Source: Bacilli bacterium
Lineage (GTDB): Bacteria; Bacillota_I; Bacilli_A; RFN20; CAG-449
Direction: 5' to 3'
Assembly: GCA_900755065.1 (NCBI GenBank)
Contig: CAAEFC010000006.1
Location: 31,828 to 95,827 of the forward strand
Length of the DNA stretch: 64,000 nucleotides
The position numbers were made by a program, and so were the translations under genes. How positions within the stretch are numbered: position 1 is the first letter of the stretch; each line of letters begins with the position of its first letter. The notes beneath the pieces are model-generated. The model worked only from the letters and a program-made list of their open reading frames with translations, was not told the origin of the DNA and ran no database searches. Positions 16,951-17,688 of this stretch are shown here, in pieces.

Positions 16951-17688
16951 GGCTACTAAGTAGAGAGCTTTTTATTAAAACGTCTAAGTTTTTCTGCAAA
17001 TCTTACTTTTATATAAGTGGAGAAATCAATTTCCAAGATATACCCCCTAAAAACAGCAGTTTGAGGGCAATAAATGAGGATGTTTTCTTTTAGACCTTAA
17101 CTTTCGCCATTTCCCAAGGCTTCTATATGAGGGGATATTGTAAACATACTTTGAATTTTTGAAAAAGTACCCTACCAAATGGCATTTCCCGTGGCTATTA
17201 AGTGAGGGGCTATATAATTTGAGTTGCTCAAAGTGTTTGTGAAGCGGCATATATAGTGAGAAGCTTTTTCAAGAAGGGGTCAAAAGGTGACACCTTCGTG
17301 TGCTAAAATTCTTTCACGAATGCGACAGTAGGTGTCATATTCACCTGCTAAAATACCCGTGAACAATCTGTAAATTATAGCCTTTTCGATTGCTCAAATG
17401 CTCCCTGAATTCCCTTGTAAAGTGAGGGCAATTATAAACTTTCTGAAAACTTTTGAATTTTATTGCACTTTTTGTGCTTTTTCGCTGGCTACCAATTGAG
17501 GGGATATATGAAATCCTTGGTGTGCTATGAGAAGAAAATCTGTAAACAAATTGTAAAAGATCGCCGTTTGAGGTGGTAAGCACCCCTGTTTTTTCCTTTG
17601 GATAAGTGAGGGGATTAAATCCTTTTTGGAAAATTTCAATATAATTGCCCTTTTTATATCTTCTCGGTGGCTACTACTTGAGGGGATA
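16951..17688. repeat. array of 8-9 degenerate ~20-bp direct repeats with a TGAGGGG core
   Basis: Copies start at ~16951 (ggctactaagtagagagc), ~17058 (gtttgagggcaat), 17118 (ggcttctatatgaggggat), 17193 (gtggctattaagtgaggggct), 17243 (gcggcatatatagtgagaagc), 17411 (cccttgtaaagtgagggcaat), 17484 (gctggctaccaattgaggggat), 17596 (ctttggataagtgaggggat) and 17667 (ggtggctactacttgaggggat). Spacing is irregular (50-170 bp), so this is not a CRISPR array. Confidence 0.5.

Follow-up and report, generated by a model that had tools for sequence, protein, structure and literature searches.

The window analysed in this study, a 64,000-nucleotide stretch of a Bacilli bacterium contig (CAAEFC010000006.1), contains a 12.3-kb Tn4451-related mobilizable element of gut Clostridia (10337-22620), and this element harbours an array of direct repeats upstream of its recombination (TnpW-TnpX) and mobilization operon. 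The array occupies part of a non-coding region (16700-18050), in which no gene was called in five identical metagenome copies either. The features of the locus are listed in Table 1.

Ten copies of the repeated motif, seven strong and three degenerate, lie on the plus strand between 16940 and 17691, and none is found elsewhere in the window. The weight matrix derived from 21 aligned copies has the consensus TTTTGCCCTTTTCnCTGGCTACTnAnTGAGGGGATA and an information content of about 27 bits; it gives seven matches of 14.9 to 40.1 bits between 16935 and 17653, and no other match of at least 12 bits outside the array on either strand of the whole 64 kb. The string GGCTNYNNNNTGAGGGG is present exactly at 17118, 17193, 17487 and 17669, all on the plus strand and within 570 nt, while further matches in the window appear only at two mismatches. 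Five TGAGGGG heptamers fall within a 560-nt part of the array, compared with nine on both strands of the whole window, and a repeat finder detected two five-member families, one of 34 nt and one around TGAGGGG. These exact-pattern, TGAGGGG and weight-matrix counts place the repeats far beyond chance, at the position given by a previous sequence-only reading of this DNA, and the motif statistics rule out an artefact of AT-rich sequence.

Table 1. Features of the repeat array, its leader and the surrounding mobilizable element (window coordinates)
Feature	Coordinates	Strand	Description
Repeat array	16940-17691	+	7 strong and 3 degenerate copies; orthologous arrays in L232, L233, L234, L236-L240
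Copy a, GGCTACTAAGTAGAGAG	16951-16967, core 16961	+	TAGAGAG core variant; 19.9 bits
Copy c, GGCTTCTATATGAGGGG	17118-17134, core 17128	+	34.5 bits
Copy d, GGCTATTAAGTGAGGGG	17193-17209, core 17203	+	37.4 bits; invariant in 8/8 orthologues
Copy f, core TGAGGGC	17423-17429	+	class II, TTCCC-N8-TGAGGG, no GGCTAC; 14.9 bits; orthologue-conserved
Copy g, GGCTACCAATTGAGGGG	17487-17503, core 17497	+	40.1 bits; orthologue-conserved
Copy i, core TGAGGGG	17607-17613	+	class II, no GGCTAC; 20.2 bits
Copy j, GGCTACTACTTGAGGGG	17669-17685, core 17679	+	last copy; 34.9 bits; orthologue-conserved
Degenerate copies b, e, h	~17062, ~17253, ~17567	+	identified by eye; partly conserved in orthologues
Putative sigma-70-like promoter, TTTTCA-17-TACAAT	17137-17165	-	c-d spacer; 9/12 matches; 100% conserved in 8 orthologues
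Non-coding leader	17692-18051	+	from array to TnpW; most columns invariant in 8 orthologues
Intrinsic terminator, GCCGTTATGTAACGGC and T-run	16873-16898	+	right edge of cargo slot, just left of array
TnpW (PF14202)	18052-18360	+	first gene 3' of array
TnpX-like large serine recombinase	18357-20387	+	Resolvase, Recombinase, Zn_ribbon_recom, DUF4368
DUF3847 and MobA/MobL (PF03389)	20879-22501		MobA/MobL is the relaxase of the element
Mobilizable element	10337-22620	+	inserted after CAA in serine-recombinase gene
TnpV (PF14198)	10479-10850	+	backbone gene, left end
DUF6809	10847-11128	+	backbone gene, left end
Cargo slot	11103-16881	-	primase, UvrD-like helicase, HTH_17 here; DUF2971 and DnaJ in L234
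Primase	11174-13177	-	cargo
UvrD-like helicase, 1102 aa	13187-16495	-	cargo
HTH_17 protein	16522-16752	-	cargo; divergent from array
Serine recombinase without N-terminus	22744-24159

Each site is asymmetric and extends over about 35 bp, comprising a pyrimidine tract, GGCTAC and TGAGGGGATA, these blocks lying about one helical turn apart. The previously reported count of 8-9 copies, their consensus and their irregular spacing are all borne out; the motif, described then as about 20 bp, is longer, because a tract of pyrimidines some 13 nt before the core also belongs to it. Two classes of sites may be distinguished: class I copies contain the GGCTAC block, whereas class II copies consist of TTCCC-N8-10 followed by the core without GGCTAC, and the latter are also found in the related loci L233, L228, L209 and L241 (loci compared with the window are designated L). 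Units f-g and i-j represent a diverged duplication of about 183 nt. The copies are separated by 75, 76, 72, 110, 167 and 294 nt in the window and by about 55-60 nt in L233, with AT-rich spacers. The second block noted before, ATAAAC...TTTTGAA, is real and follows copies c and f; after copy c it lies within a stretch identical (100%) in the orthologues. As in CRISPR loci, repeated units are situated in non-coding DNA, but here the 'spacers' are homologous between units and conserved between orthologues, the repeats are degenerate and irregularly spaced, and no cas genes are located nearby, in agreement with the earlier statement that the array is not CRISPR. The f-g spacer includes a CodY-box-like sequence (AACTTTCTGAAAACT at 17437-17451, two mismatches to AATTTTCWGAAAATT); two of the eight such matches in the window lie in or beside the array, an enrichment that is not significant, and CodY boxes were dismissed as a feature of the spacers.

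A total of 561 relatives of TnpW were found. Eight TnpW-anchored relatives (L232, L233, L234 and L236-L240; TnpW 64-97% identical) carry the array upstream of TnpW-TnpX, with 4-11 weight-matrix matches each, all on the TnpW strand; the array is thus present at the equivalent position in homologous elements, where the sequence-only reading had proposed to look for it. Alignment of the eight orthologous regions revealed that the order of copies and their position-specific variants (TAAG-TAGAGAG, TATA-TGAGGGG, TAAG-TGAGGGG, CAAT-TGAGGGG and TACT-TGAGGGG) are kept; for example, the TAGAGAG variant of copy a occupies the same array position in L234 and L236. Hardly any column varies among the eight regions over 17128-17209, a stretch that begins with the copy c core and continues through the spacer to the end of copy d. 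The core of copy c from 17128 is identical in 8/8 orthologues and its upstream GGCTTC block is present in seven of the eight, varying in two. The remaining spacers have diverged by indels, and whole units were gained or lost between orthologues. As judged from the alignment, this copy-by-copy conservation is the mark of purifying selection on the sites. One further relative, L231, whose TnpW is 90% identical, has neither the array nor the leader.

The motif is not confined to this family. A metagenome scan with a two-copy pattern yielded 23 loci, of which about 16 belong to six independent Clostridial mobile-element families with the same motif pair or array. Altogether, motif pairs or arrays precede the mobilization or recombinase operon, on the same strand, in about ten other Clostridial element families with different gene content, represented by L028, L205/L218, L228/L230, the L209 family, L203/L213, L157, L241 (a neighbour element) and L233, as well as by L201 and L199, whose sequences contain the motif but do not extend far enough to reveal the operon. 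Copy number ranges from 2 to at least 11 across the families, and all 61 scored copies share the strand of the operon that follows them, and so do the copies found later in L241. The 20-mer of copy d recurs identically in the unrelated locus L201. The downstream operons begin with TnpW, a TnpY-like protein, an HTH_17 protein or Mob_Pre, and the relaxases beside the motif are MobA/MobL (PF03389), Mob_Pre or PF03432, the Mob_Pre-like protein of L028 being assigned by eye from its sequence. Stray weight-matrix matches are rare elsewhere in the 2.4 Mb of fetched loci, no similar DNA was found in phage and plasmid collections, and a motif scan of viral contigs gave almost solely single chance matches. 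Two pattern matches that look unrelated were left out, namely 17 tandem copies of the 17-nt unit GGCTGTTTAGTGAGGGA in L202 (9320-9600) and a perfect 82-nt tandem repeat beside an ALAD gene in L216 (140-400).

Regarding known motifs, no description was found in Rfam or in the searchable literature, where a search with the motif string returned unrelated primer sequences only. A sigma-54 promoter reading was rejected, the spacing being one base short, with GA in place of GC; by-eye inspection of the plus strand also failed to support a sigma-H, F, D or A promoter, and relative to a DnaA box the motif has two extra bases. As far as the sequences compared here go, the array is widespread, conserved and matches no described family.

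Between the array and TnpW lies a conserved leader, which contains the related boxes TGAATACTACCCCCATAAT and TGATAACTGCCCCCACAAAT, followed by TTGACA (17769-17774) and GTGTGGATATGACC; the same two boxes also flank the array of L241. This leader has no Rfam match and a folding z-score of +0.7. It distantly resembles the leader of L213, in which a dinG RNA (RF03082, 50 bits, 3044-3137) was detected just 3' of the array and upstream of a serine recombinase gene. In L233 the leader includes a tandem duplication of an 81-nt unit (1247-1396, copies 75% identical), absent from the window. On the other side of the array, the terminator at 16873-16898 is kept in L234 and L232 with a different stem (GCCGCGATAGCGGC), and, lying directly upstream, insulates the array region from cargo transcription. 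Within the c-d spacer a putative minus-strand promoter has its predicted start on the CCCCTCA of copy c, with copy d at about -65 to -80; if functional, it would direct leftward synthesis of an RNA of about 250 nt, with its 3' end at the 16873-16898 hairpin. Minus-strand promoter-like sites (at least 9/12 matches) accompany 13% of the 61 copies, good ones being confined to copy c and sometimes copy d.

The borders of the element are defined by the gene that it interrupts. The left flank encodes ...ALYCRLSCDDDSEGDSNSIKNQ up to 10336, and the same frame resumes as KLLLGKYAEEQRF... at 22621; since the recombinase frame is broken at the first position and taken up again at the second, 10337-22620 represents an inserted element. 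The N-terminal part of this serine recombinase is encoded at 10211-10336 and the remainder at 22621-24159, the gene being split at the codons for SNSIxNQ|K. CAA is found at both junctions. The left end GTGGTAATATGTARAGGGTGG abuts the same recombinase-gene codons in L234, L241, L242 and L244 and a non-recombinase, unrelated site in L243; in all, this left end was seen at five distinct targets. Judging from these junctions, insertion of the element seems to be directed at recombinase genes carried by other mobile elements.

Joining of the right end to the left end (22605-22610 and 10341-10346) would produce TTGACA-17-TAATAT with TGG upstream of the -10 box, reading into TnpV-DUF6809. This predicted promoter would exist solely in the excised circle. 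Comparison with L234 showed backbone homology over 10256-11102 and again over 16882-22726, and the intervening stretch is unrelated, which identifies the primase-helicase-HTH block as exchangeable cargo. These genes, labelled a 'xis operon' in the sequence-only reading, therefore do not belong to the element backbone, and the array starts 70 nt to the right of the cargo boundary (16881/16882).

The element is a permuted relative of Tn4451, not Tn4451 proper. We know of no description of a repeat array in Tn4451. For tnpX of that element, a promoter at the circle joint was reportedly described by Lyras and Rood in 2000, whereas the joint promoter predicted here would read into TnpV rather than tnpX. 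The gene order is also different, being permuted to TnpV, cargo, array, TnpW-TnpX and MobA, and the relaxase is MobA/MobL rather than a TnpZ of the Mob_Pre type, which goes with an RSA oriT; because of this difference in relaxase, the element was not assigned to Tn4451 proper. The features shared with Tn4451/Tn4453 are TnpV, TnpW, a TnpX-like recombinase, a mobilization gene, a cargo slot, putative short identical end cores and a predicted promoter at the circle joint (general features of Tn4451 according to PMC5704250).

A long, asymmetric, strand-specific motif under selection, present in a variable number of copies upstream of an operon, is the signature of sites for a regulatory protein. 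With the motif, its conservation, its position and its strand as the starting point, we tentatively favour the view, to which we give somewhat less than an even chance, that the array is a set of putative double-stranded DNA binding sites regulating the TnpW-TnpX/mobilization operon. The array would be the cis-regulatory region of this recombination and mobilization operon. A small protein would bind the sites of about 35 bp cooperatively across the AT-rich, bendable spacers, and, once bound, it would determine how strongly TnpW-TnpX is transcribed from the conserved leader and would also control the conserved leftward promoter of the c-d spacer. In the most economical model, TnpV and DUF6809 would be produced from the promoter assembled only upon circularisation of the element, and the array would couple expression of the recombinase and mobilization genes to the excised state. 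In the sequence-only reading, protein binding was one of the roles proposed; it remains the best general reading, while the particular partners named then, the HTH-primase and the Xis-like HTH protein, are not obligate.

Among known systems, the array is most like operator or iteron arrays, such as the omega heptads of pSM19035, plasmid iterons and Xis/Cox boxes, with which it shares asymmetric same-strand copies, variable in number, in a regulatory intergenic region near promoters. It differs from them in the length of the site, the spacing and the cognate protein: the sites span about 35 bp in three blocks, the copies are 55-300 bp apart instead of being contiguous or phased at about 22 bp, and no Rep or Par genes are present in the element backbone.

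The binder may be TnpV, DUF6809, TnpW or TnpX, all suggested by co-occurrence, or a host factor. TnpV accompanies the motif in four element groups, namely the family of the window and L234, L028, L218 and L199. A more specific and rather unlikely scheme is a state switch operating throughout a large superfamily of gut Clostridia elements, in which TnpV and/or DUF6809, made solely from the joint promoter, would bind the array and thereby switch both the recombinase/mobilization operon and the leftward c-d promoter, either on or off. In an unusual variant of this scheme the array would work as single-stranded DNA on entry into a new host.

Several results weigh against regulation by a protein bound to double-stranded sites. 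No element-encoded protein is common to all motif-bearing loci. TnpV, DUF6809, TnpW and TnpX were not seen in the 14 kb available of the L209 family, so that the binder may be a host factor. Structural models of TnpW (pLDDT 56, a beta-hairpin and a helix) and TnpV (pLDDT 61), both of low confidence, reveal no fold known for DNA binding. The spacings of the window and of L233 are not in phase with the DNA helix, and no confident position could be assigned to the promoter that drives the downstream operon. On the plus strand, the pyrimidine tract of many copies can pair weakly with GAGGGG to give a hairpin, and one copy of L232 has an exactly complementary variant (CTTTCC/GGAAAG), which leaves some room for a single-strand role. 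The absence of the array from L231 indicates that it is dispensable for having TnpW-TnpX, and, according to a review, TnpX alone suffices for transposition of Tn4451 (PMC5704250).

The strict strand-specificity of the motif and the mobilizable nature of the element leave smaller shares to three other explanations. In the first, which we consider unlikely, the array acts as RNA, either as a plus-strand 5' leader or as a minus-strand c-d transcript, and the motif is a single-stranded site for a protein or the ribosome that controls stability, termination or translation of the recombinase operon. The co-orientation of the motif with the operon in every locus examined is expected for such a role. 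On the plus strand UGAGGGGAU resembles a Shine-Dalgarno sequence, on the minus strand AUCCCCUCA is like the C-rich seed of some Firmicute small RNAs, and a transcript from the conserved minus-strand promoter would start exactly at the CCCCUCA of copy c. The mean hairpin energy is lower on the plus strand than on the minus strand (-7.4 vs -5.2 kcal/mol), units consisting of a promoter, a short RNA and a terminator adjoin the motif pair in several relatives, and in L233 most units are followed by a U-run.

Analysis of RNA structure did not support this explanation, nor the cluster of small structured RNAs suggested by the sequence-only reading. A search of 15500-19500 against Rfam with E-values up to 1 gave no match, and none was found at the motif in related loci. 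A hairpin of the pyrimidine tract with GAGGGG, placing GGCUAC in the loop, is common in minimum-energy folds but was rejected: fixed-register pair counts were no better than shuffled or slid controls, RNAalifold predicted no pairs, and among 39 distinct copies cognate arms (-6.35 kcal/mol) did no better than swapped arms (-6.56 kcal/mol, p = 0.82), so that no covariation is evident. Folding of the whole array was no better than that of shuffles, with z-scores of -1.4 and -0.7 for the two strands. The array is closely preceded by a terminator, and scanning of the interval between the two gave no promoter-like site on the plus strand, while the minus-strand promoters are restricted to the small fraction of copies given above. 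A scan of 16700-18060 for hairpins with T-runs revealed three candidates besides 16873-16898, not one per unit; two weak unit-associated candidates lie on the minus strand and most units have none. The array was likewise rejected as a series of intrinsic terminators, the stems being too weak and the U-runs inconsistent. The Shine-Dalgarno-like cores are not followed by start codons, and no open reading frame is conserved, so that small peptide coding was rejected. Comparison with LhrC1-5 of Listeria leads to the same picture: the C-rich minus-strand AUCCCCUCA is complementary to Shine-Dalgarno-like sequences and there is a good promoter at copy c, but most copies of the array are without promoter or terminator and no structure is conserved.

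It is still less likely that the array acts as single-stranded DNA during conjugative transfer, providing sso-like priming sites, single-stranded promoters, or decoy or auxiliary nic-like hairpins for a helper relaxase. The element is mobilizable and carries MobA/MobL, and its relatives have Mob_Pre or other relaxases; however, association of the motif with three relaxase families argues against a relaxase-specific site, and no PF02486 relaxase was seen. The loop GGCTACTC was likened to pT181 IRII, the sequence of which we take to be GGCTACTCTAAT. With what is presumably the MOBQ nic site, TAAGTGCGCCCT, only a partial match was obtained, as was the case for ssoA and the MOBT nic, and all three were rejected. 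The nic hairpin of MOBT/Rep_trans systems is GC-rich, with 7-bp arms and a 12-nt loop containing CT'AA (PMC9371924). The motif, in which pyrimidine and purine arms of 6 nt each enclose a loop of about 14 nt (26 nt in total), is similar to the sites of ICESt3, ICEBs1 and pT181 in size (about 26 nt), in its C/T-rich left and G-rich right arm and in a loop with CTA, but its arms are mostly non-complementary and do not covary, and in DNA many positions would be mismatched or G-T paired; moreover, the loop does not retain CT'AA, its N4 stretch being variable, and there are many copies instead of one. The minus strand (GTAGCCAsCGAAAAG, or GTAGCC...CGAAAAG) is partly like CS-6 (TAGCGT) and the RSB (TTATGCCGAGAAAATTT; GCCGAGAAAA) of ssoA (PMC4598088), and the element is transferred as single-stranded DNA, although the order and spacing of boxes differ and neither a long imperfect hairpin nor a folding signal is present. 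These likenesses are short partial matches made by eye. For the same reasons, that is, three unrelated relaxase types, no hairpin covariation and partial nic and sso matches, the earlier suggestion of an oriT or ori region is not upheld.

The copies might also be related to recombination, as accessory or pseudo-att sites of the large serine recombinase or as sites of cargo exchange, which is improbable. The position of the array beside the cargo boundary, the presence of TnpX-like recombinases with the motif in most families and the gain and loss of units between orthologues would be in line with this. On the other hand, the joint, attL, attR and attB score from -6 to +2 bits with the motif matrix, against a background 95th percentile of 1.5, and pseudo-att sites were therefore rejected; dyad symmetry about a central dinucleotide is lacking in the motif, and the integrase of the L209 family is of the tyrosine type. 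It was also counted against this explanation that accessory sites are not known for large serine recombinases.

Even less probable is a functionless AT-rich satellite generated by tandem duplication. Variation in unit number among relatives, the lack of the array in L231 and the frequent breaking of contigs at the array are compatible with a satellite, but copy-by-copy conservation, including a stretch of about 80 nt that is almost identical while other spacers have diverged, and the occurrence of the same motif in families with unalignable flanks speak against it.

The least probable explanation, in which the copies serve the HTH-primase or the Xis-like HTH_17 protein as iterons or operators, or form an origin for the helicase-primase, draws on the divergent orientation of the HTH_17 gene in the window and on a 75% identical HTH_17 homologue at the same relative position in the L209 family, but L234 has an orthologous six-copy array and no HTH_17, helicase or primase, which excludes these proteins as obligate partners, the genes lie in the exchangeable cargo slot, and L205/L218 and L230 have no HTH_17 match. 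Among 80 loci with a related helicase (62-82% identity), the motif was found in L028 alone, downstream of the primase gene; the other 79 have no motif near the HTH/helicase genes, and the array was rejected as a part of the helicase/HTH module.

Elements of the TnpX type are very common in gut Clostridia, and a motif of about 35 bp shared by about ten families offers a testable handle on the control of their excision and mobilization. TnpV and TnpW have, to our knowledge, been without an assigned function since 1995; the state switch, if true, would give them one, and the element would sense whether it is integrated or excised. The motif could also help to annotate the boundary between backbone and cargo in metagenomes. 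The contigs of L235, L236, L238, L239 and L240 end inside or beside the array. The repeats appear to break short-read assemblies, which would account for the frequent breaks at the array, and the array is probably under-represented in assembled data.

In the loci seen, the genes carried along include those for resistance (ABC-F), for defence (type I restriction-modification, Thoeris and AbiE), for surface proteins and for replication modules. Examples of cargo in the relatives include AbiEii and a 1019-aa protein with a weak RdRP match in L231 (88-5830), a Thoeris system with ThsA (SIR2-STALD) and two ThsB in L201 (980-3662), an ABC-F type ATPase in L218 (1085-2593) and a type I restriction enzyme subunit in L241 (927-4043). 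The HTH_17 cargo protein of the window reaches 74 bits with the NCBIfam model of MAD1 (methylation-associated defence; cut-off 80), and it also matches an excisionase-family domain.

Other non-coding elements were noticed in the loci compared. Two Gut-1 RNA matches (RF01706; 75 and 46.6 bits, gathering score 50) are located at 4379-4553 of L028, upstream of DUF6809/TnpV. Another conserved leader, starting with AACTGAATGACCGTCCGAATGGGATATGA and having no Rfam match, precedes the mobilization operon in many Clostridial elements, with or without the motif pair (L028 10921-11080, L205 325-440, L209 9255-9420 and L222-L230). Ahead of this leader there is often a promoter with a short RNA, in which ACAACTGAAT is likewise present, and a terminator.

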